From the sequence record PP449093.1: a stretch of DNA of 64,000 nt. The stretch is one strand, 5' to 3'. Position 1 is the stretch's first letter, and each line of letters starts with the position of its first letter. Of the stretch, positions 3,008 to 53,235 are shown one piece after another. A program made the position numbers and the translations under genes. Source of the stretch: Escherichia coli phage phiS. The notes below the pieces were generated by a model. The model made no database searches, was not told the origin of the DNA, and saw nothing but the letters and a program-made list of their open reading frames with translations.

Positions 3008-5116
3008 ATGAAAATGCATATTGATAATGAAGAAGTATTTGGTAGTGACCTGAGCGGTGCGGTTGATTTTTCACTGAAAGCAAGTAGCAAGGCTTTTATG
3101 GTGCTTTCTAAGAATACCTATCAATATTGTGAGCGTGCTTGCGTCCGTGAATATTCATGTAATGCTACCGACACTCACAAAGAAGCCGGAACCTTAGACC
3201 GTCCGTTTGATATTCATTTACCGACTGCAATCGAACCGTATTTTTCTGTGCGTGATTATGGTACTGGTATTCCGTCTAAGAAAGAATTAGAACAACTGTT
3301 TACGGTTTACTTTGAATCAACAAAAGACCAGACTAATGACTATATCGGATCTTTTGGTTTAGGTGCGAAGTCTGCGTATAGCTATACCGACACCTTTACA
3401 ATCGTAAACTATTACAATGGTCGCGCTTATGGCTTTACAGCATTTGTGCAAAACTCTATGCCGAAAATGGTGCAGATTTTCGACGAACCGACCTATGAAG
3501 ACAATGGTCTGAAAATCACTATTCCGGTGAAAGAAAAAGACATTCAGACATGGCATCGAGAAGCGCAATTTGTACTGCGTCATTTTGGGGAACACAAACC
3601 TAATATCAATGCAATCGAAATTAATTATTTCCCTAGCTTTGATAATTATTATGTGTGTAATGGGCGTGATAACGATTCCTATGTAGTATATGCAATCATG
3701 GGTAAGATTCAGTATCCGATCCCGTATGAATATGTTCGCGGAACATGGTTAGAAGCTGTAAACCGCCAGCACCAGACCATTTACATTAATTTTGAGTTGG
3801 GTGATCTGGACCTGATGCCATCGCGTGAAGAAGTTCACTTGTCAATTGAGACTAAAGCGAACATCGAAAAACGTATTGCAGAAATCAATGAAATGATGTT
3901 GGAAAAGGTCAAAGAGAAGATCGCCAACATTAAAACAGAGCGTAAACTTGCGCAATTTATGAGCGAGTATTCATCGACTCAACGCAATATTATTAGCAAG
4001 ATGGGTAAGATCGGACAATGGGATGATCCGGTAGCAATCTATAATAAGTTTGTGAATGCGGGTAAAGATTCGCCTAATGACGTAGAAGGTCAGGTGTATA
4101 CTCTGTATCGTACTCGTCACACAATCAGTAAATTGCGCCCTGCTTTCGTTAGAAGTCAATACAACATTACGCATTTTGTATGGATGCATAAAGAAGATAT
4201 TCTGTGTGTAATTGATGATACCGATAAACCGAAACTGCGTGCACTGACTCTTAACGGCATGGTCCAGGAATACGGAATCAATAAAAAGGTACTTGTGTTC
4301 CGTCAGCGCAACGAAAAACATATGGAGACTTTCGAGTACATCAAACAGTATTATGATGATTCTGAAATGACCGTGATTAAAGTGTCTGAGGCCGATGATC
4401 TGCGTGCTAAAGCAGTTAAACCGGAGAAGACCGAGCGTACACAACATGAAGCGACTCCTAAGCTGCCTAACGTGTATATCATGGAAAAGATTGGTGACAG
4501 TTGGCATAAAACCAGCCATCACATGAAAGCGGCAGAGATTCGCGAGTTATCAGGCTTGCACATGTTCCGCGTAGGTGATGCATTCGAAAGCCGTAGTCGT
4601 AAATCGATCCATAGTGAAAATACATTACACACGGCGCTTGACTACTTCGGGGTAACAAAGTATATTATTACCCGTAACGAGACACAAAAATATCTCGTTG
4701 ACGAACAATTGGAATGTGCGCTAGAATTTGTTCGCGGTAAGCTGGCTGGTCTGGCTAAGAAGGTTAAGACCAATCATCTGGGGTATGGCGAATATCTGGG
4801 TGTGATCACTATGTTGTTTCATGACGATGAACTAGAACGCTGTGTTCCAGAATTTATTGACAGACTGTACGGTCGTCATTATAATAAAGAGGTTTCCAAG
4901 TTACTCCTTCGCACCCGTTGGATTATGGACGAAGAAACTAAAAAGATTTGTGATGAAAAATTCACGGCAGCAAACGAACGAATTAAAGCAGTTTGTGCGA
5001 AGTTTAAAGAGAATAGCCCGTTACTGTATGATATTGTAGATAACTGGTATCGTATTCTGCATAACGACAAACGCGCACAAGACTTTATGAAACTGGTTAA
5101 GAATGTTAAATTTTAA
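3008..5116 (+). CDS. rIIA: rIIA protector-from-prophage-exclusion protein (GHKL ATPase-like)
   Basis: 702-aa ORF; histidine-kinase-like ATPase motifs (DYGTGIP, GSFGLGAKS); sits between gp39 and rIIB as in T4. Confidence 0.85.
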   Translation: MKMHIDNEEVFGSDLSGAVDFSLKASSKAFMVLSKNTYQYCERACVREYSCNATDTHKEAGTLDRPFDIHLPTAIEPYFSVRDYGTGIPSKKELEQLFTVYFESTKDQTNDYIGSFGLGAKSAYSYTDTFTIVNYYNGRAYGFTAFVQNSMPKMVQIFDEPTYEDNGLKITIPVKEKDIQTWHREAQFVLRHFGEHKPNINAIEINYFPSFDNYYVCNGRDNDSYVVYAIMGKIQYPIPYEYVRGTWLEAVNRQHQTIYINFELGDLDLMPSREEVHLSIETKANIEKRIAEINEMMLEKVKEKIANIKTERKLAQFMSEYSSTQRNIISKMGKIGQWDDPVAIYNKFVNAGKDSPNDVEGQVYTLYRTRHTISKLRPAFVRSQYNITHFVWMHKEDILCVIDDTDKPKLRALTLNGMVQEYGINKKVLVFRQRNEKHMETFEYIKQYYDDSEMTVIKVSEADDLRAKAVKPEKTERTQHEATPKLPNVYIMEKIGDSWHKTSHHMKAAEIRELSGLHMFRVGDAFESRSRKSIHSENTLHTALDYFGVTKYIITRNETQKYLVDEQLECALEFVRGKLAGLAKKVKTNHLGYGEYLGVITMLFHDDELERCVPEFIDRLYGRHYNKEVSKLLLRTRWIMDEETKKICDEKFTAANERIKAVCAKFKENSPLLYDIVDNWYRILHNDKRAQDFMKLVKNVKF

Positions 5117-5127
5117 GAGGTGATATT

Positions 5128-5259
5128 ATGACTAAACTGACCGCTATCCAGAAAGAAACCATCCGTAAACAATACGCTCGCGGCTTGACTAAAGGCGAAC
5201 TGGCACGAATCTATAATGTATCAGACCGCACAATCCGCAAGGTTGTAGAAGCAAAATAA
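5128..5259 (+). CDS. small helix-turn-helix protein (43 aa)
   Basis: AGAGGTGA SD then ATG; LTKGELARIYNVSDRTIRKV resembles an HTH; below ORF-track length cutoff. Confidence 0.45.
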   Translation: MTKLTAIQKETIRKQYARGLTKGELARIYNVSDRTIRKVVEAK

Positions 5260-5312
5260 TTCTGGTATAATGATGTGAATCGGGCGGCGATAGTCGCCCA
5301 ACTAATAGAGGA

Positions 5313-6314
5313 ATGAATACTATGACTAAAGCAAAAATCACCGTCTCTGACCGTAACGTTCAATGCCTGGATTCTGCGAAACAAATCAAACTGGCTAAAC
5401 AGTGGGGCGAAGGTAAGTTTACTACCCGCGAAGCACTTGCGGCAGCATTTGGTGTATCTCGTCGTACTGCTTCCCGTGTATTACTGATTCAGAAAGACGC
5501 AGTAGCGGAAGGTCGCAAGGCACTAGAAAAACGTAAAGCACGCCGTAAAACAAGTAAAGGAAAAGGCGGTGAACGCGCAAAAAAGCCCGTGACTACTACC
5601 TCAAAAATCGTAGCCATAGCCTCAACTAAGTTTATTACTATTACATGCGGTGACATTGTTTATATTGCTGATCCATCACATGTTAACTTTAAGGAAGCAC
5701 TGGAAGCAGTTAAGCAGAATGATTTTATTAAAGCAATTACGCTGATTGACATTAAGAAAGCGGTTGAAGTATATTATCACGGCGCTTTCCGTATCGAAAA
5801 TGGTATTGTGTATTATCATAATATTGTTCTTGATAATAATCTGACTCGTCGAGTTGTTGAGTCTATTAAAGAGAATAAGCCATATACGCACTATCTGAAC
5901 TTCTTTGAGAAGTGCAAGAAAAACCCTAGCCGTAAGGCGGTAGATCGTCTGTTTGACTTCTTAGAACACAACGACATTGAGATCGGGGAAGATGGTTGTT
6001 TCTATGCATGGAAACGTGTTGATGTTGATTATAAAGATTTCTTTACGCATACGTTTGATAATAGCCCAGGGCGCACGGTTAAAATGAAGCGTAAAGACGT
6101 TGGCCCAGATGATGATCGCACTTGCTCTAATGGCCTCCACGTTGCAGCGAAACACTATATTCCACACTATGGCGGTGGACGAGGCCGAATCATTAAATGT
6201 AAAGTTGATCCGCGTCACGTTGTAAGTATCCCGAAAGATTATGCGAATGCCAAAATGCGCTGTCATCGTTACTATGTGGTTGAAGATGTAACCGAAGGTT
6301 TTAGCCATTACTAA
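5313..6314 (+). CDS. rIIB: rIIB protein
   Basis: C-terminal two thirds resemble T4 rIIB from memory (SRLFDFL..IEI.EDG.FYAWK, FDNSPG, VVSIP.DY.NAKMR); start may be the ATG at 5322. Confidence 0.85.
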   Translation: MNTMTKAKITVSDRNVQCLDSAKQIKLAKQWGEGKFTTREALAAAFGVSRRTASRVLLIQKDAVAEGRKALEKRKARRKTSKGKGGERAKKPVTTTSKIVAIASTKFITITCGDIVYIADPSHVNFKEALEAVKQNDFIKAITLIDIKKAVEVYYHGAFRIENGIVYYHNIVLDNNLTRRVVESIKENKPYTHYLNFFEKCKKNPSRKAVDRLFDFLEHNDIEIGEDGCFYAWKRVDVDYKDFFTHTFDNSPGRTVKMKRKDVGPDDDRTCSNGLHVAAKHYIPHYGGGRGRIIKCKVDPRHVVSIPKDYANAKMRCHRYYVVEDVTEGFSHY

Positions 6315-6328
6315 CAGAGGAATTAATT

Positions 6329-6655
6329 ATGGTTGATATGAAAGTTACTTGCGAAAGTGCACATGTTGAAGTTGAAAGTAGCCAATATTCATTGCGTCCG
6401 TCCGGTCGCGTTACTGTGACTATGGATGATGTTGATTTGGTTAATAATGTTAGTGTTGAAGATATCGTTAATGAGTATGATCATAGCGAACTGCTAGACG
6501 CAATTCCTGAACATGTTGTGATCCAGCACGTAGTAAGCAATAATGATCCATCGACTTTCATTAAAGAATATGGCGCTGATGAAATGCTCGATGAAATTGG
6601 CGAAAAGATTGTTATTGCATGGCTTGAAAACAACGGCTATACTGTAGAACAATAA
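6329..6655 (+). CDS. hypothetical strongly acidic protein (108 aa)
   Basis: ORF with SD; about 23 Asp/Glu against 5 Lys/Arg. Confidence 0.55.
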   Translation: MVDMKVTCESAHVEVESSQYSLRPSGRVTVTMDDVDLVNNVSVEDIVNEYDHSELLDAIPEHVVIQHVVSNNDPSTFIKEYGADEMLDEIGEKIVIAWLENNGYTVEQ

Positions 6656-6663
6656 TCAACATA

Positions 6664-6686
6664 GGCCGCTTTGCGCGGCCTTTCTT
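6664..6686 (+). terminator. rho-independent terminator-like hairpin
   Basis: GGCCGC-TTTGC-GCGGCC followed by TTTCTT. Confidence 0.5.
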
Positions 6687-6700
6687 AGAGGGAATACATT

Positions 6701-6994
6701 ATGACGGTCACGGTTATTACCAAATACGACGACGAAAATGTGATTTACGGTGACGTGGTTGTTGTTCACGGTCGTAGCATGAAAGTTACTGGTAATTGTA
6801 AAGATGGTGCTATTATTTGCGGTGAATTGGTGAGAACAGTCAATCCTATCACCGACGAACAAAAGCGAGTTATTATCAGAAAACTTAAAGACAGTGGATA
6901 TTGTAACGTCGTGGTGATTCAAGAAAAAATTGAAGTAGGCCAGTTATACACAAACCAGAAAACAATTCCAGTATCAATGATAAAAGGCGGTTAA
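6701..6994 (+). CDS. hypothetical protein (97 aa)
   Basis: ORF with GAGGGA SD. Confidence 0.55.
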   Translation: MTVTVITKYDDENVIYGDVVVVHGRSMKVTGNCKDGAIICGELVRTVNPITDEQKRVIIRKLKDSGYCNVVVIQEKIEVGQLYTNQKTIPVSMIKGG

Positions 6995-36566: not shown

Positions 36567-37760
36567 ATGGGAAATACGGTATTTAATCGTGAACATGTTG
36601 ATATTATGAATGAACCGATGTTTCTGGGTAGCGGTTTAGGTATCGCTCGTTATGATATTCAGCGTCATCAAGTATTTGAAGAATTAATTGAAAAATCTCT
36701 GTCATTTTTCTGGCGTCCAGAAGAGATTTCACTTGCAACTGACCGCATTCAATATCTTAATATGGGTGACGTTGAAAAGCGTTTCTTTACTGAAAACTTG
36801 AAGTATCAGACATTACTTGATTCTATTCAAGGTCGCGCACCGTCCGCAGCATTTGGTCCAATTGTATCTGATCCAACTCTCGATACATGGTTACAAACAT
36901 GGACATTCAGCGAAACGATTCATAGCCGCAGTTATACTCACATTATGCGTAACTGTTTTATTGATCCGGCTAGTGAGTTCGACCAGATCATCGATAACCC
37001 TGCTATCATGAAGCGAGCGGAATCTATCGGGAAATATTATGATGATGTTCTTTATTGGATTCGTAAGTATGAGAATGCAAAAGAAGATCTCCGCTATTGG
37101 GAAGAAGAAGTTCTCCACCACTATTGGGAAGAACGAGACGATCAGACAGAATTAGATGATGCAAGAAGATTTTTTGAAGATACAAAACGAGATCTGATGG
37201 CTTCGATTTATCTGTGTGCACACTGCGTAAATGCACTGGAAGCAATTCGTTTTTATGTGTCCTTTGCATGTACTTTCAGCTTTGCCGAACGTGGTTTACT
37301 GGAAGGTAACGCGAAGATCATGAAATTTATTGCGCGTGATGAACAACTTCACTTAAAAGGCACACAATACATTATTCGTCAATGGCAAACGGGGGTTGAT
37401 GGTGATGAGTGGAAACAGATTGCGGAAGAACTTGAAGGCGAAGCAACGAAAATCTTTCTGGATGTTGTCGAGCAAGAAAAAGAATGGGTAGACCACCTAT
37501 TCGCAATGGGGGCAATTCCTAACCTGTCACCGGAAATTCTGAAAACCTATGTAGAATACCTGGCAGATTCCCGTATGCGCGCCGCCGGACTGAAAAGCCC
37601 GTTTAGTGTTCGTCGTCATCCGTTACCGTGGATGCGTAAATGGTTGAACTCTGACGAAGTACAGAATGCAGCGCAGGAAGTAGAGATTATGTATCTGGTA
37701 TCTCAGGTTAATACCGATTTAACAGACGACGACTACAACCGATTCGGGAAATATCTATGA
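36567..37760 (+). CDS. nrdB: aerobic ribonucleotide reductase small subunit, intron-less
   Basis: 397 aa; class Ia beta motifs (FFWRPEE, NLKYQTLLDSIQGR, WTFSETIHSRSYTHI, NALEAIRFYVSFAC.F.FAERG). Confidence 0.95.
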   Translation: MGNTVFNREHVDIMNEPMFLGSGLGIARYDIQRHQVFEELIEKSLSFFWRPEEISLATDRIQYLNMGDVEKRFFTENLKYQTLLDSIQGRAPSAAFGPIVSDPTLDTWLQTWTFSETIHSRSYTHIMRNCFIDPASEFDQIIDNPAIMKRAESIGKYYDDVLYWIRKYENAKEDLRYWEEEVLHHYWEERDDQTELDDARRFFEDTKRDLMASIYLCAHCVNALEAIRFYVSFACTFSFAERGLLEGNAKIMKFIARDEQLHLKGTQYIIRQWQTGVDGDEWKQIAEELEGEATKIFLDVVEQEKEWVDHLFAMGAIPNLSPEILKTYVEYLADSRMRAAGLKSPFSVRRHPLPWMRKWLNSDEVQNAAQEVEIMYLVSQVNTDLTDDDYNRFGKYL

Positions 37761-38233
37761 TATATTTTGTCGATTTAGATTTTACGATCACAGATCCAAC
37801 GCATCGACTAGCAAAGATGCCAACCGAAAATCTTGATAAAGTCGAGTCGTGGATCGAATATAACAAGGCATGTGGGGGAGATTCCCCCATTTACGATGTA
37901 ATTCGTGTTATTAATGCTCTTTCCGACAACGGGCATTTGATTTACATCCTCACCGGACGAAGTTCACATGCTTACATGGAAACAATTGATTGGTTAATTT
38001 CTAACGGGGTGTGTTTTGATAAAATCTTTATGAGAGGCCGTACCGATTCCCGTAAAGACTATCACATCAAATTAGAGGTAATTAAATCCTTTGATAAAGA
38101 TGAAGTTGTCGGAGTCTTTGAGGATAACCCAGAAGTGATTAAAGTTTTGCGTGAAAATGGTTATCGTGTCTTTGACGTAGGAAATCACAAAGATAAGACG
38201 CGAGCGGATATTGCAAATCACGGTCATGATTAA
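37757..38233 (+). CDS. HAD-superfamily phosphatase (stand-alone, resembles the Pnk phosphatase domain)
   Basis: DLDFT (DxDxT), ILTGR, K, FEDNPEV motifs; aligns by eye with the C-terminal domain of the Pnk at 41735. Confidence 0.6.
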   Translation: MIYFVDLDFTITDPTHRLAKMPTENLDKVESWIEYNKACGGDSPIYDVIRVINALSDNGHLIYILTGRSSHAYMETIDWLISNGVCFDKIFMRGRTDSRKDYHIKLEVIKSFDKDEVVGVFEDNPEVIKVLRENGYRVFDVGNHKDKTRADIANHGHD

Positions 38234-41286: not shown

Positions 41287-41735
41287 GCATAGAAATATTG
41301 CATACACAAGATCAGATAAGCAATTTTAATCTGGTTGATTATCTGGGGATAGGTGCAAGCATTATTATCCTGATGGTGTTTTCAATTTTCGTGATACACT
41401 GGATGTTTAAGAAAGCACATAAGAATTTTCAGACCGCCATAATCCATGTCTTCGCTGTGCCTATTGTATTTGCGCTTTCTTCGTGTACACTGGACCATTA
41501 TTCACAGGAACCGAAATTACATCCTCCACTACCAGCACCAATAGAAAAAGTTGACATTGACCTGAAAGTGGATACAATAGACGGTAAACCTAGAGTTTCT
41601 ATGTCGTGGGAGGACTCCCAAAAATTCAGAGTCTGGCTTGCGGATATTAAGAGATATACACTTGAAAGTAAGTTGATCATGTGTTATTATCGAAAAGAAC
41701 TTAATGAGGAACGGTGCAAACCGAAGGAGAAATAA
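41283..41735 (+). CDS. outer-membrane spanin candidate (lipoprotein; alternative start 41403)
   Basis: Internal Met at 41403 gives signal peptide plus lipobox ALSSC and a Pro-rich mature region; the longer frame from 41283 adds an N-terminal TM segment. Confidence 0.5.
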   Translation: MSIEILHTQDQISNFNLVDYLGIGASIIILMVFSIFVIHWMFKKAHKNFQTAIIHVFAVPIVFALSSCTLDHYSQEPKLHPPLPAPIEKVDIDLKVDTIDGKPRVSMSWEDSQKFRVWLADIKRYTLESKLIMCYYRKELNEERCKPKEK

Positions 41736-42613
41736 TGCCGAAATGTGAAGTGATTTTAACCGTTGGTTGTTCTGGGTCCGGTAAAACTACATGGGCTATG
41801 GAAACGTGTAAACGGTTTAGTAATTATCGTAATGTGAATCGCGATGATCTTCGTCTTATGTTGTTTGGTGTTGACTCACATTTGAAATACAAGTATACTA
41901 AGGAAAAAGAAAAACTGGTAGAGTCTATTCAGAGAATGATTGCTCGTGAGACTCTATCACGCGGTTTGAGTATCATTATCTCCGATACCAACCTGAAAGA
42001 AAAACATCGTGTATTCTACAAAGAACTTGCAAAAGAATTTAACGCGGTGTATACTGAACAAGTGTTCAATGAACCGTTTGAGACACTAAAGAAACGTAAT
42101 TTCTATCGCGGCGAGAAAGCAATTCCACTTTCTCATTTGCGTAACCAATTTTATCTGATGCAGGAATATATGGGTCAAGAAGTATACAAACCGAATACCA
42201 TGCTGCCGAAGGCAGTGATCTTTGATATTGATGGAACATTAGCGGATAAGGGCGGTCGTCATCCGTTTGACTGGACAAAGGTCAAAGAAGATAAACCTCG
42301 TCCGCAAGTGATCGAAATGCTTAAACTGTATCGTGATAATGGCTATCGTATCATTACATGCTCAGGGCGTGAGGATGTTTGCGAAGAAGATACTCTGCAA
42401 TGGTTGCGTGAACAGGGTATTGAACCGAGTGATCACTTTCAACGTGAAACTAATGATCGTCGTCCTGATCATGAAGTGAAGAAAGAGATTTTCTTCTCTG
42501 AAATTGCACCGCGTTATCATGTTGTGTTGGCAGTAGATGATCGTGATCAAGTGGTTGACATGTACCGCTCAATTGGTGTAGAATGTTTTCAGGTTAACTA
42601 CGGAGACTTTTAA
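41735..42613 (+). CDS. pseT: polynucleotide 5 prime-kinase / 3 prime-phosphatase
   Basis: P-loop GCSGSGKTT, NRDD, then HAD domain AVIFDIDGTLA...SGRE...DDRDQVV; resembles T4 Pnk; ATG after AAGGAGA. Confidence 0.9.
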   Translation: MPKCEVILTVGCSGSGKTTWAMETCKRFSNYRNVNRDDLRLMLFGVDSHLKYKYTKEKEKLVESIQRMIARETLSRGLSIIISDTNLKEKHRVFYKELAKEFNAVYTEQVFNEPFETLKKRNFYRGEKAIPLSHLRNQFYLMQEYMGQEVYKPNTMLPKAVIFDIDGTLADKGGRHPFDWTKVKEDKPRPQVIEMLKLYRDNGYRIITCSGREDVCEEDTLQWLREQGIEPSDHFQRETNDRRPDHEVKKEIFFSEIAPRYHVVLAVDDRDQVVDMYRSIGVECFQVNYGDF

Positions 42614-43344: not shown

Positions 43345-43657
43345 ACAAATTGATAATATCGCACTTCGTGAAGCACTCAAGAAAATGTTTTCGGTCGGTA
43401 CTCACTCTTTGCAGTTTACTAAGAAAGATGGTACTGTCCGTGAGATGATCGCCACGCGAGATCCGGCACTGATGCCGTTTGAAACATACGAAAAGTGGTT
43501 AGTTCCTAATGTTGAAAAACCGCGTAAAGAATCAGAAACATCTTTGCCAGTATATGAAATTGCAGTTGAAGGTTTCCGTAGTTTTGGGCTTGATAGTCTG
43601 ATTAATGTAGATGGATTGACTCCAGCGCAGATCATCGAAATGTACGGTGGTAGTTGA
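43337..43657 (+). CDS. hypothetical protein (106 aa)
   Basis: ATG inside ORF-track 43331..43657 (track start TTG). Confidence 0.5.
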   Translation: MTEQIDNIALREALKKMFSVGTHSLQFTKKDGTVREMIATRDPALMPFETYEKWLVPNVEKPRKESETSLPVYEIAVEGFRSFGLDSLINVDGLTPAQIIEMYGGS

Positions 43658-43659
43658 CA

Positions 43660-44271
43660 ATGGAAATAAAAGATGATAATATCATATTACCAGCACCGGA
43701 AGAATGGAGACAAGCTGTAGGTTATCCGTGGTATGAAATCTCTAATTATGGTAGATTGAGATCTATTGACCGAAATATCGAATTTTATAGAGAAGTTTCT
43801 CCTGGTAATATTAAGCTAGTAAAACAAAAACGTGCTGGTAAAATAATAAAACCGATTTTAGACCGATATGGGTATTATTATTCAACACTGTCAAAACAAA
43901 AAGACAATGGTAAAATCTCAGTTAAAGCCGAAAAGATACATCGACTTGTAGCAAATGCATTTCTAGGAGACGTTACCGGACTGGAGGTTAACCACATCAA
44001 TGGTGTAAAAACCTGCAATTATGTGTGGAATTTAGAAATAGTAACCTTACTAGAAAATATGAGACATTCATTTAGAACTGGACTCAATAACAATGTTGGT
44101 GAAAACCACTCACGGGCAAAACTGACAAATGCGCAAGTCGAAGAAATAATGCGACTCAAAGGAAAGGTTAAGAAGCAAATTATAGCCGATATGTTTAATG
44201 TTTCTTATTGTTGTATAGCGCAAATACATTCTGGTCTGCGGCGAAATCCAAAGGTCGCTAAATATAAATAA
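43660..44271 (+). CDS. HNH homing endonuclease (NUMOD4/HNH_3-like)
   Basis: WYEISNYGRLRS and VNHINGVKTCNYVWNLEIVT motifs. Confidence 0.7.
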   Translation: MEIKDDNIILPAPEEWRQAVGYPWYEISNYGRLRSIDRNIEFYREVSPGNIKLVKQKRAGKIIKPILDRYGYYYSTLSKQKDNGKISVKAEKIHRLVANAFLGDVTGLEVNHINGVKTCNYVWNLEIVTLLENMRHSFRTGLNNNVGENHSRAKLTNAQVEEIMRLKGKVKKQIIADMFNVSYCCIAQIHSGLRRNPKVAKYK

Positions 44272-44307
44272 TTTACTATTGAACTGAATTGAAGAGGTAA
44301 GAAAATT

Positions 44308-44631
44308 ATGACCGTTAAAACTCCTAAAGCACTTGGTGACTATGTGATCATTGAAGCTAAAGCGGAAAGCGCAGGGACCGAAGTAAAGAGCGACTTTGGT
44401 ATTATCATCGAACAAAAACGAACTATGGGAGAGATTCCTTTAGTCGGTAAGATTATTGATATCGGTGATAACGTTGATAAAGAATTGCTGGGTAAGACTG
44501 TATTGCTTCCTCATGGGAAACTTAATAAAGTTCCTCATCCAGACGTTATTAACGGCGTTAAGAAGGAAGAAGAGATCGACCTGAAATGGACTGTAACACA
44601 CAAACAGAATATTGTGGTAGTTTACGGTTAA
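44308..44631 (+). CDS. 31: co-chaperonin GroES analog gp31
   Basis: 107-aa ORF at the T4 gene 31 locus (between cd and ligase); GroES-like pattern (GDYVII, mobile-loop-like segment). Confidence 0.65.
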   Translation: MTVKTPKALGDYVIIEAKAESAGTEVKSDFGIIIEQKRTMGEIPLVGKIIDIGDNVDKELLGKTVLLPHGKLNKVPHPDVINGVKKEEEIDLKWTVTHKQNIVVVYG

Positions 44632-44642
44632 TGATTTTAAAC

Positions 44643-44667
44643 GGCGGGAAATAATCCCGCCTATATT
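44643..44667 (+). terminator. terminator-like hairpin
   Basis: GGCGGGA-AATAA-TCCCGCC followed by TATATTTTG. Confidence 0.5.
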
Positions 44668-44713
44668 TTGGCTATATGATTTTGTAAGTTATTGATTATT
44701 AAGGAATTTTATT

Positions 44714-44878
44714 ATGAAAACTATGAATGTAAACATCCACGAAATCCATACCGAAGTATTCACCGATGAAGACCAGTTTGGTGTATGGGTAAATCCTCAT
44801 TCGATTACTATCGATATTCCTAATGACGATTATGATCCGTTCTCTCTGATTAGCGAGATTAGTTTCAATGACTTCTGA
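44714..44878 (+). CDS. hypothetical small protein (54 aa)
   Basis: ATG after AAGGAATTTTATT; below ORF-track cutoff. Confidence 0.4.
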   Translation: MKTMNVNIHEIHTEVFTDEDQFGVWVNPHSITIDIPNDDYDPFSLISEISFNDF

Positions 44879-45347
44879 AATTGATATCTATGCGGGTGGA
44901 CCTTATCCATCGGGTGAATTGAGTAATTTCAATAAAAGACCATTCCGTCTATTTGGTTGTGATATTAACAGCACAGAAGGATTTTTACAGGGGCTAAGAT
45001 TTAAGAACCCTCAGAGACAAAGAGAAATCTTTTTGATGCACGGTGGCAAAGCAAAAAGAACCGGAAGAACTGAAAAGATTGAGAATCACATGTTATATTT
45101 TCAGGGTCGCCAGATTCATCGAATGAGTGAGCATTATTACAGACTGGTACATCTGGCATTTGTTACGATGGCACGGAATAACCCAGAATTTTGTAAAGCA
45201 TTACTCGCTACAGGAAATAAGAAATTACGTCATAGCATAGGTGGAACTGATCCGTTAAAGACTATATTGACTGAATCGGAATTTTGTAGTATCCTCAATG
45301 ATATTCGTGAACGTTTAACAAAACGAGGTGAAAATGTCAATTCTTAA
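44868..45347 (+). CDS. NADAR (YbiA/DUF1768)-like protein
   Basis: GELSNF, STEGFLQGLRF and ALLATG...L.H segments resemble the NADAR fold family; by-eye assignment. Confidence 0.45.
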   Translation: MTSEIDIYAGGPYPSGELSNFNKRPFRLFGCDINSTEGFLQGLRFKNPQRQREIFLMHGGKAKRTGRTEKIENHMLYFQGRQIHRMSEHYYRLVHLAFVTMARNNPEFCKALLATGNKKLRHSIGGTDPLKTILTESEFCSILNDIRERLTKRGENVNS

Positions 45348-46830
45348 TATCATTAACCAGCTTGCAGCGACCGACAAAACATCGCTGAAAGAAAAGATCC
45401 TGAAAGAATCCGCAAGTAATGAAACTCTGAAAGAATGCTTTTATCTGGCATATTGCAAACAGGTTACGTTTGGCGTAAAGAAATACGATAAACCATCGCG
45501 TTATTCGTCTGTATTGTCTTTATCCGGTGCATTACAGGTCTTTAAAAATAAACTTGCCACGCGTCAAGTAACTGGTAATGCAGCATTACAGCTAGTTACC
45601 GATACTCTGACTTGCTTGTCAGAGGATGATGCTAAAGTTGCAATGATGGTCCTGAATCGTGATCTGGAGTGTGGTTGTTCCGCTACCACTGCAAACAAGG
45701 TATGGAAGAAACTGATCCCCCAGCAACCGTGCCACCTTGCATCGTCATGTTCTGATAAGACTATTGCCAATATCAAATATCCGGCGTATGCACAACTTAA
45801 AAGCGATGGCGCTCGTGGTATGGCTGATATTGACGGGGAAACATTAGCAATCTATACCCGCTCAGGTAATACCTATCAAGGGCTTGATGATTTGTTTGCG
45901 GTTTTAGAGCGTCTACGAGGCCGTGGAATTGTTCTAGATGGCGAATTGGTATATATGCCTACCCTTTCGCAAACACCAGCGCAGAACTTCGTTGAGAGCG
46001 TTTATGATGGTACTCTGTCATGGATATTTGAAGAAGAGGAAATGCCATTAACGCCAGTAGCGGAAGCAGTGAAAGAATCCGTTGTTGCAGATCGTCAGAC
46101 CGGAAATGGTATCCTCAACAAATCACTTAAAGGAACTATTCCAAAAGAAGAAGCCCAATGTATTGTTTACACTGTCTGGGATGTTATCGACCGTGATGTG
46201 TATTACGGAAACGAGAAAGCAACGAAGCAATATAAAGATCGATTCGAAGAACTAAAACAGATTGTTGAAGAACTTAACGATCCTCGTGTTCAGATAATCG
46301 AAAATACTGTAGTTAACAATATCGATGAAGCTCGCGAAGTATATCATCGCTATGTAAACATGGGATTAGAAGGCATTATCCTTAAAAATTTACATGGTGT
46401 ATTTGAAGATCGTCGCAGTAAAGATCAGGTTAAATTTAAAGAAGTGATTGACTTCGACGCGGAAATTGTTGATGTATATCCGCATAGTAAAGATCCTAAT
46501 AAGGTAGGCGGTTTTACTGTCCGTAGTGCGTGCGGACGAATGATGACTAACACCGGATCGGGATTGACCGACACCACAACCGAAAAAGGCGATGATGGTA
46601 TTGAACGTGTGATTCCGTTTGACCGTCGAAATGAACTTGACCGAGAAATGTTATGGGCTGACCGTCATAACCTGATTGGAAAAGTCATTGAGATGACATG
46701 CAACGGGTATATCCGCAGCAAATCACGTAAAGAAGATGAACCGGAGTTCTCTTTATTTCTCCCAATCATAAAACGTATTCGCTACGACAAGACCACTGCA
46801 AATACAGTAAAAGAGGTATTCGATGTGTGA
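45334..46830 (+). CDS. 30: ATP-dependent DNA ligase gp30
   Basis: Resembles T4 DNA ligase (AQLKSDGAR adenylation motif, LDGELVY, SLKGTI.KEEAQC, EGIILKN, KFKEVID.D, GGF). Confidence 0.9.
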   Translation: MSILNIINQLAATDKTSLKEKILKESASNETLKECFYLAYCKQVTFGVKKYDKPSRYSSVLSLSGALQVFKNKLATRQVTGNAALQLVTDTLTCLSEDDAKVAMMVLNRDLECGCSATTANKVWKKLIPQQPCHLASSCSDKTIANIKYPAYAQLKSDGARGMADIDGETLAIYTRSGNTYQGLDDLFAVLERLRGRGIVLDGELVYMPTLSQTPAQNFVESVYDGTLSWIFEEEEMPLTPVAEAVKESVVADRQTGNGILNKSLKGTIPKEEAQCIVYTVWDVIDRDVYYGNEKATKQYKDRFEELKQIVEELNDPRVQIIENTVVNNIDEAREVYHRYVNMGLEGIILKNLHGVFEDRRSKDQVKFKEVIDFDAEIVDVYPHSKDPNKVGGFTVRSACGRMMTNTGSGLTDTTTEKGDDGIERVIPFDRRNELDREMLWADRHNLIGKVIEMTCNGYIRSKSRKEDEPEFSLFLPIIKRIRYDKTTANTVKEVFDV

Positions 46831-47299
46831 TAATGAAGGGGCGAAAGCCCCTAAACCTAAAAAATTGTCAAAGAAAGAGCAACGCCAGATCCTGAAAATG
46901 AAATATGGTGGACGTTGTGCCTATTGTGGCGAGGAACTAGGGGATCGCTGGCACGCAGACCACATCAAACCAGTATTGCGACGCTCAAAGGTAGTCTATG
47001 ATGAAAATGGACGAATTGCCCGTAATGATGATGGATCGTGGAAGTATAAGGTTGTAGGAATGCATAAACCGGAGCATGATATACTTGATAACATGAATCC
47101 GGCGTGTGTGCAATGCAATCTTTACAAAAGCTGTATGGGCTTAGAATACTGGCGTAAGTGTATACGCGAGAACTTCCAGAAGTACATTCAGCACAATATG
47201 GGATTGCGAGCGGCTAAACGCTTTGGCTTGCTGTCAATTCATGACCAGCCAGTAGAATTTTATTTCGAAAAGTACGAGCGCGAGCATCAAGAAAAATAA
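46823..47299 (+). CDS. HNH endonuclease
   Basis: CAYCGEEL...HADHIKP...NMNPACVQCN. Confidence 0.7.
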   Translation: MCDNEGAKAPKPKKLSKKEQRQILKMKYGGRCAYCGEELGDRWHADHIKPVLRRSKVVYDENGRIARNDDGSWKYKVVGMHKPEHDILDNMNPACVQCNLYKSCMGLEYWRKCIRENFQKYIQHNMGLRAAKRFGLLSIHDQPVEFYFEKYEREHQEK

Positions 47300-47313
47300 T
47301 TCAAAAAAAGTTG

Positions 47314-47342
47314 TTGACAGGGGATCACCGATCCCCTATACT
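47314..47342 (+). promoter_or_regulatory. early promoter with palindromic spacer GGGGATCACCGATCCCC
   Basis: TTGACA, 17-nt perfect dyad spacer containing two GATC, TATACT. Confidence 0.65.
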
Positions 47343-47387
47343 ACACACATCAAAACGAAACACACTTTCTTAAACGGAGAATCAAAA

Positions 47388-47555
47388 ATGTTCCAGACTA
47401 AAGCAGAATGCGAAGCATACATTGTAGCAAACCACGGTGAAGACTACCTGAAATTCGATATCGTAGTAGCACAGAAGATCACCGGAATGGTTGCAAAATA
47501 TCTGGGTGTTAAAGAAGGTTACTATCCAAGCAACGCACCAGAAATTAACAAATAA
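47388..47555 (+). CDS. hypothetical early protein (55 aa), paralog of 50645..50812
   Basis: MFQTKAECEAYIVANHGEDYLKFDIVVAQKI... against MFETKAACEAYIIETYGEDYLKFDIVVAQKI... Confidence 0.55.
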   Translation: MFQTKAECEAYIVANHGEDYLKFDIVVAQKITGMVAKYLGVKEGYYPSNAPEINK

Positions 47556-52386: not shown

Positions 52387-52715
52387 TGAGATTGTTTAAG
52401 TATTCGCTAACGTCAAATTACGATAAACAAGGTCATTGCATCCGTTGCCCTGATTGTCATAACCATAACATCGAAAGCAAGATCACCGATCATATTGATG
52501 GACTTTGGTCGCCAGCAAGTGAAATAGAATACTATTGCGCTGATTGTGGAATTGTAGTAGCATATTGGGCATACGGATCATATGATCCATACTTCCAGAT
52601 GGGAGAGCGTTCAATCCCTGCGCTTATCTGGAGAATTAAGAACAATATCCGCCATTCATGGGATGAGTTATTAAAAGATATTGATTTACGTGATGATCCA
52701 TTCAGGAGACTATAA
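52386..52715 (+). CDS. zinc-ribbon protein (109 aa)
   Basis: CIRCPDC and YCADCG cysteine clusters; start overlaps upstream stop. Confidence 0.5.
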   Translation: MRLFKYSLTSNYDKQGHCIRCPDCHNHNIESKITDHIDGLWSPASEIEYYCADCGIVVAYWAYGSYDPYFQMGERSIPALIWRIKNNIRHSWDELLKDIDLRDDPFRRL

Positions 52716-52716
52716 C

Positions 52717-53235
52717 ATGAACAGATTAACCCCTAAACGCCGTTACTATACCAATACTAAAAACTTTGTCATCTCTGTTTATGAGGCGTGGTTAGAAGAT
52801 GGCTATATCAACATGAACCCAGATTATCAGCGTCCTTTGGTATGGGACACCGAAAACAAACGTATGTTTATCGAAAACCTGATTAATGATTTTCCGGTTG
52901 GTGCTATCGCAATGGCTAAGATTGATGATGGCTCTCGATATGAGATCGAAATCGTGGACGGTAAACAGCGTTTAAACGCAATATTCTCCTTCATGAAGGA
53001 TGAGTTTAGCATTGCTGGTAATGATGATTCTATGCTGTATTACAGTGATTTTACGCCAGCAGAAAAGCGACGTTTCCGAAATCTCGGACTACCCGCGATA
53101 ATGATGGAAGAGAGCACACGAGAAGACCGATTAGAGTATTTCTACAAAACAAACTTTTTCGGTGTCCCTCAATCGGAAGAACATCGCCAGCATGTGATTT
53201 CCCTATTGCAAGATGAGCAATTAAAAAATAACTAA
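52717..53235 (+). CDS. DUF262 / ParB-like nuclease-domain protein (172 aa)
   Basis: YQRPLVW and IVDGKQRLNAI (DGQQR-type) motifs; ATG after AGGAGAC; ORF-track start 52681 is TTG. Confidence 0.55.
   Translation: MNRLTPKRRYYTNTKNFVISVYEAWLEDGYINMNPDYQRPLVWDTENKRMFIENLINDFPVGAIAMAKIDDGSRYEIEIVDGKQRLNAIFSFMKDEFSIAGNDDSMLYYSDFTPAEKRRFRNLGLPAIMMEESTREDRLEYFYKTNFFGVPQSEEHRQHVISLLQDEQLKNN

Follow-up and report, generated by a model that had tools for sequence, protein, structure and literature searches.

The gp30.3 proteins of T4-like phages are treated as the 'phage NADAR' branch of the NADAR enzymes (PMC11125620, PMC11543638), and the phage NADAR group of De Souza and Aravind, as far as it is cited in PMC11125620, corresponds to the same gp30.3 proteins. 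The T4 prototype, AdfN (anti-DarT factor NADAR), is a guanine-ADP-ribose DNA glycohydrolase which is required, and also suffices, for the resistance of T4 and T2 to DarTG1 (Johannesman 2025; Cihlova 2024; Schuller 2023). Purified T4 gp30.3 frees guanosine, not thymidine, in DNA of ADP-ribose (Cihlova et al. 2024, PMC11125620), and a 2026 paper describes the T4 enzyme as acting on guanosine-ADP-ribose, not on cytidine-ADP-ribose (PMC12945103). Without adfN, neither T4 nor T2 can plate on cells that carry DarTG1; expression of AdfN rescues RB69, and the protein clears DarT1-modified DNA of ADP-ribose (Johannesman et al. 2025, PMC11825919). The T4 protein cannot substitute for DarG1 in uninfected cells (PMC11825919, PMC11125620). 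Here, we describe a gp30.3-type gene of Escherichia coli phage phiS (sequence record PP449093.1), which lies at 44868..45347 on the + strand of the 64,000-nucleotide stretch that was analysed (hereafter, the window), next to the DNA ligase gene, and which is the gene 30.3 ortholog of this phage.

The first-pass annotation, made from the sequence alone, had proposed a NADAR-like gene at this position on the basis of an open reading frame (ORF) and two short motifs. The ORF runs from ATG to TAA and encodes 159 amino acids, and both quoted motifs are present: GELSNF spans residues 16-21, and STEGFLQGLRF spans residues 35-45. In the alignments, residues L18, S19, N20, E37 and Q41 are invariant or almost so among the homologues, and this invariance, together with a 130.1-bit match to the Pfam family PF08010 (Phage_30_3; cut-off 36, profile positions 2-138 of 138 covered), argues that the two segments did not arise by chance. 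The protein also matched phrog_652 (E 2.5e-45) and T4 gp30.3 (NP_049816; 38% identity over 151 residues, BLASTP E 8e-29). The direct match to the Pfam NADAR profile PF08719 was weak (16.7 bits vs a cut-off of 35.1, E 0.0089), and the PDB-sequence profile search reached YbiA only at E 0.054; the NADAR relationship was settled only by hhalign and by comparing folds. A profile of 12 homologues aligned with E. coli YbiA with an hhalign probability of 89% (E 2e-6). The AlphaFold2 model, built from a 12-homologue alignment, reached a mean predicted local distance difference test score (pLDDT) of 93.6 and a predicted template modelling score (pTM) of 0.88, and the only Foldseek matches in the PDB with E<1 were NADAR structures, namely 2b3w (E. 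coli YbiA), 8bau (Phytophthora NADAR with ADP-ribose) and 8bat (Geobacter lovleyi NADAR). Thus, three independent routes confirm the NADAR fold, a helical core with small beta-hairpins at its flanks, and bear out the proposed assignment, and membership in the gp30.3/phage NADAR family is near certain. A six-frame profile scan found no second gp30.3/NADAR copy in the 64-kb window.

The active-site residues were compared in 168 aligned domains, in which the 150 best representatives were joined by the homologues collected before, as well as by T4 gp30.3 and the query sequence; the exhaustive search behind these counts returned 975 clusters at E<=0.001. The glutamate E37, which was aligned with T4 E36 in the pairwise alignment and with YbiA E48 by hhalign, is conserved in 161 of the 168 domains, and the Glu at this position is the catalytic or distal-ribose-binding residue (PMC11543638, PMC11825919). 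H122 aligns pairwise with T4 H123 and comes after strand 119-121 of the model; His occupies this position in 159 domains. A histidine in the last strand is the hallmark of phage NADARs, whereas the YbiA type carries Glu and the DarT1-associated type Asp (PMC11125620, PMC11543638). The C-terminal helix is intact in the model, and the ORF extends seven residues past the C terminus of T4 gp30.3; the RB69 allele, which is 15 residues short at this helix, is non-functional (PMC11825919). With regard to domain architecture, 61 of the 168 gp30.3-type domains lie in proteins of at least 250 amino acids, often C-terminally in proteins of 460-500 amino acids; in a few cases, a single protein holds two such stretches, and the Glu is replaced in one copy.

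Over the 3 kb surrounding the gene, the identity to FL20, ECD7, KFS-EC and 56 other Escherichia phages is 97-98.5%. ECD7 is classified as Straboviridae, Krischvirus, and the phiS window is that of a Krischvirus, an E. coli phage of the RB49-like type related to T4. Across 59 Krischvirus genomes the ORF, which is intact, is conserved at 95-100%; the protein is 100% identical to one of phage UPWr_E1 and 98.7% identical to the RB49 copy. In ECD7 the gene is annotated as 'hypothetical protein; gp30.3 conserved hypothetical protein'.

The gene order of phiS matches the T4 map according to the tblastn correspondences: pseT, cd, 31.1, an HNH gene, 31, orf54, 30.3, 30, a further HNH gene and, after intervening genes, alt and an alt-like gene. 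The series 31, orf54, 30.3, 30 is found both in the window and in ECD7, which places the NADAR gene between genes 31 and 30. The adjacency to the ligase gene, remarked on in the first-pass annotation, is real: the likely ligase start codon (ATG 45334, as annotated in ECD7) overlaps the end of the NADAR gene by 14 nt, and the two genes are closer than in T4 because 30.1 and 30.2 are absent. A functional link between the NADAR protein and the ligase was considered and rejected as unsupported, as the adjacency is the inherited T4-type order and no nick results from the reaction. The regions concerned are 44868..46830 of the window and 3746..6766 of the T4 locus. A tblastn search (E<=1) of the entire 64-kb window revealed no homologue of T4 30.1, 30.2, 30.4-30.9, rIII or alt.1, so that 30.3 is the sole gene of the T4 30.1-30.9/rIII/alt.1 set with a detectable homologue there. 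The Krischvirus region thus keeps the NADAR gene without its T4 neighbours, 30.2 included, a pattern that fits selective retention of 30.3 alone among the T4 accessory genes.

We propose that this gene is the Krischvirus adfN, whose product would act as a stand-alone NADAR that removes DarT1 adducts from phage DNA and defeats DarTG1; by analogy with the T4 protein, the probability of this reading is put at about 0.8. Gene 30.3/adfN would encode a minimal stand-alone NADAR-fold N-glycosidase which, judging from the T4 protein, would bind the ADP-ribose on guanine N2 in DNA and hydrolyse the ribose-base bond. The adducts set by the host DarT1, the toxin of DarTG1, would thereby be cleared from the phage DNA, and replication could proceed. 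The family, the fold, the conserved active-site Glu and phage-type His, the intact C-terminal helix and the synteny upstream of the ligase gene are established for the phiS gene. The suggestion of the first-pass annotation that a phage NADAR could counter a DarT-like defence is borne out at the level of the family, since this is the experimentally shown role of the T4 ortholog AdfN (PMC11825919). The anti-DarT role is correct but already published for gp30.3 proteins and, therefore, not new; as the chemistry, fold and role are described for the T4 prototype, the phiS gene adds no further conceptual novelty. If the likely anti-DarTG1 function of the phiS copy holds, as the analogy suggests, RB49-like phages, which are often proposed for E. 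coli therapy, would carry a counter-measure to DarTG1 abortive infection, and this would matter for host-range prediction.

Several observations weigh against this reading. The identity to the assayed T4 protein is just 38%, and the Tevenvirinae of the AdfN study (Bas35-47, T2, T4, T6 and RB69; PMC11825919) include no Krischvirus, so that we infer from T4 what the phiS copy does, both as an enzyme and against DarTG1. Likewise, Krischvirus entries are absent from the supplement of PMC11125620, where the phage NADARs are those of T4, KpV477 and RL38J1 only, and no paper naming Krischvirus together with DarTG was found in the literature searched. Moreover, AdfN(T4) is fully effective only in T-even infection, for a cause left unexplained (PMC11825919), and its behaviour in another genus cannot be assumed. 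Among the defence-related profiles, no PADLOC model matches the phiS protein or T4 gp30.3, and NCBIfam gave no significant match to the phiS protein, with 'NADAR family anti-phage protein' below threshold (E 0.014). Finally, phiS has Arg at position 44, where 152 of the 168 domains carry Lys and 10 carry Arg; the basic character is retained. The lysine at the T4 K43/C7 K95 position contacts the ADP-ribose phosphate/adenine. The K95R variant of C7 NADAR is active in vitro and gives no rescue of cells from DarT1 (PMC11543638), so the potency of the phiS copy in vivo could be lower.

One rival explanation holds that the protein de-ADP-ribosylates nucleic acids more broadly and that in this phage it is mainly directed at something other than DarT1 products, such as guanine adducts of the YarT or pierisin/ScARP type or RNA guanosine-ADP-ribose. 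It draws on reports that the T4 phage NADAR clears guanosine-ADP-ribose whichever transferase made it and that NADARs from every family, among them the T4 enzyme, remove guanosine-ADP-ribose from RNA (PMC11125620, PMC12945103); versatility of this kind is also raised by Johannesman et al. themselves (PMC11825919). However, this explanation extends rather than replaces the one based on DarTG1, the anti-DarTG1 effect is the sole in vivo phenotype known for the gp30.3 family, and cytidine- and thymidine-linked ADP-ribose is not removed by phage NADAR (PMC11125620, PMC11825919, PMC12945103); we regard it as unlikely.

With R44 and the missing 30.1 and 30.2 in mind, the Krischvirus enzyme might also differ from AdfN(T4) in substrate range or partner dependence, which appears rather improbable to us. 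If it did, e.g., by acting outside T-even infection or on another guanine- or RNA-linked adduct, the difference would help to explain the phage-context specificity of AdfN.

It is very unlikely that the Lys-to-Arg exchange has weakened or abolished the counter-defence function of the Krischvirus copy and that the gene is kept for another reason or by inertia. Such a view could appeal to the rarity of Arg among the aligned domains and to the failed cell rescue by C7 K95R, but the same variant retains its in vitro activity (PMC11543638) and the rescue by T4 K43A is only partly reduced (PMC11825919). Moreover, the carriers of Arg-44 include several members merely 38-45% identical to the query in which Glu and His are kept; its presence in such unrelated members suggests that Arg recurs here as a tolerated variant rather than as a private lesion. 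The intact ORF and its conservation in the 59 Krischvirus genomes also speak against decay of the gene.

The first-pass annotation had further noted two ADP-ribosyltransferases (ARTs) in the same genome and had suggested that the NADAR gene might tune the phage's own ART activity. Both ARTs are indeed encoded on the same strand, about 8 kb further downstream, and both match PF03496; the longer product shows 27% identity to T4 Alt over 695 amino acids. In this rival explanation, the enzyme would reverse or trim Alt-type products (protein arginine-ADP-ribose or RNA-linked) and so tune the takeover of the host, and Iyer et al. 2022 describe the NADAR genes of T4-like phages as early and expressed along with ARTs (PMC9503650). 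However, the demonstrated substrates of the T4 ortholog are guanine-ADP-ribose in DNA and RNA (PMC11125620, PMC12945103), and the phenotype of the adfN deletion is a specific loss of DarTG1 resistance (PMC11825919). In the literature examined, no activity on protein arginine-ADP-ribose is reported for T4 gp30.3, and in phiS the NADAR and Alt-like genes are non-adjacent, with many small ORFs between them. The tuning of ARTs found no support, as the reported T4 gp30.3 activities are all on guanine-ADP-ribose, and this role is highly improbable. A YbiA-type housekeeping N-glycosidase acting on reactive intermediates of the riboflavin pathway can be dismissed almost entirely, as the protein has His and not the YbiA-type Glu in the last strand, scores below the PF08719 threshold and falls into the gp30.3 clade, a separate one in which the member that has been assayed acts on DNA adducts.

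The features of the adfN locus and the two ART genes are collected in Table 1.

Table 1. Coordinates of the phiS adfN gene, its key residues, its neighbours and the ADP-ribosyltransferase genes in the window.
Feature	Coordinates	Strand	Remarks
adfN / gene 30.3 ortholog, phage-type NADAR, predicted guanine-ADP-ribose DNA glycohydrolase	44868..45347	+	159 aa
E37 codon (GAA)	44976..44978	+	equivalent to T4 AdfN E36, E. coli C7 NADAR E88, PnNADAR E43, YbiA E48
R44 codon (AGA)	44997..44999	+	position of T4 AdfN K43, C7 NADAR K95, PnNADAR K50
H122 codon	45231..45233	+	last-strand phage-type His; Glu in YbiA type, Asp in DarG1 type
C-terminal alpha-helix, residues 136-157, intact	45273..45338	+	model secondary structure
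54-aa upstream ORF	44714..44878	+	phrog_15277 E 2.3e-41; CDS in ECD7
gene 30, ATP-dependent DNA ligase	45334..46830	+	PF01068 E 2.8e-22; 41% identity to T4 gp30
Alt-like ADP-ribosyltransferase, 683 aa	53588..55639	+	PF03496 E 1.5e-9; 'alt' in ECD7
short Alt-C-terminal-like ADP-ribosyltransferase, 274 aa	55718..56542	+	PF03496 E 4.6e-16; ECD7 annotation

The 54-amino-acid ORF upstream of adfN encodes an acidic product and has a good ribosome-binding site (AAGGA). Its stop overlaps the start of the NADAR gene by 11 nt, and its translational coupling to adfN is possible. It showed no Pfam match and no T4 homologue in the compared region (tblastn). Directly after gene 31 comes a GC-rich hairpin (GGCGGGA-AATAA-TCCCGCC, 44643..44661, + strand) with a T-rich tail behind it, which resembles an intrinsic terminator between gene 31 and the orf54-adfN-ligase unit. 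The promoter and terminator scan of 43600..47500 returned sites no more numerous than in shuffled sequence and, therefore, no claim is made on the timing of transcription.

Two free-standing HNH genes, probably homing endonucleases, bracket the 31 - 30.3 - 30 block and are without homologue in the compared T4 region from 31 to alt. The first (43654..44271, + strand; NUMOD4 and HNH_3) separates the 31.1-like gene from gene 31, and the second (46823..47299, + strand; HNH domain) overlaps the ligase stop codon. Just upstream of alt, an ORF of 184 amino acids (52681..53235, + strand) matches the DUF262/ParB-like domain that GmrSD type IV restriction enzymes carry N-terminally (PF03235 E 4.7e-20); its ECD7 counterpart is annotated only as 'hypothetical protein' and adjoins a DNA methyltransferase. 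In a lytic phage, such a stand-alone GmrSD_N domain could serve as a decoy or act against restriction. Directly after nrdB, a short pseT-like ORF of 158 amino acids (37757..38233, + strand; 'pseT_2 polynucleotide kinase' in ECD7) encodes a product that shares about 29% identity with full-length PseT (41714..42613) in the C-terminal phosphatase part of the latter, and may be a stand-alone phosphatase-domain paralogue.

Compared with the known NADAR systems, the phiS protein is distinct from YbiA and the eukaryotic NADAR (2b3w, 8bau), which carry a last-strand Glu; in the phage family this residue is His and the tested member is guanine-specific, whereas some members of the YbiA and general NADAR families also remove cytidine-ADP-ribose or serve in riboflavin damage control. 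It likewise differs from DarG1 (the BC4488 family, represented by G. lovleyi 8bat and E. coli C7 NADAR) in lacking an N-terminal extension and in having His in place of the catalytic Asp of the last strand. The gene is, moreover, an orphan with no adjacent DarT toxin gene, its neighbours being the 54-amino-acid ORF and the DNA ligase gene, and with no PADLOC match. It resembles in this respect AdfN(Bas32) and AdfN(Bas60) of T5-like and Vequintavirinae phages, which are also phage-encoded orphan NADARs countering DarTG1; these, however, fall into different clades of NADARs (archaeal-like and bacterial stand-alone) and, unlike the gp30.3 type, neutralise DarT1 even without phage infection (PMC11825919).

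The closest described system is AdfN of T4. The phiS copy differs from it in sequence (38% identical), in the Arg at the K43 position, in a C terminus seven residues longer, in directly abutting the ligase gene with 30.2 and 30.1 absent, and in coming from a Krischvirus rather than from the Tevenvirinae assayed in the AdfN study. The two proteins nevertheless belong to the same PF08010 family and share a stand-alone core NADAR fold of about 150-160 amino acids, the Glu (E36 in T4, E37 in phiS), the phage-type His (H123 and H122, respectively) and the C-terminal helix, and both genes are located upstream of the DNA ligase gene in a T4-type early gene block.
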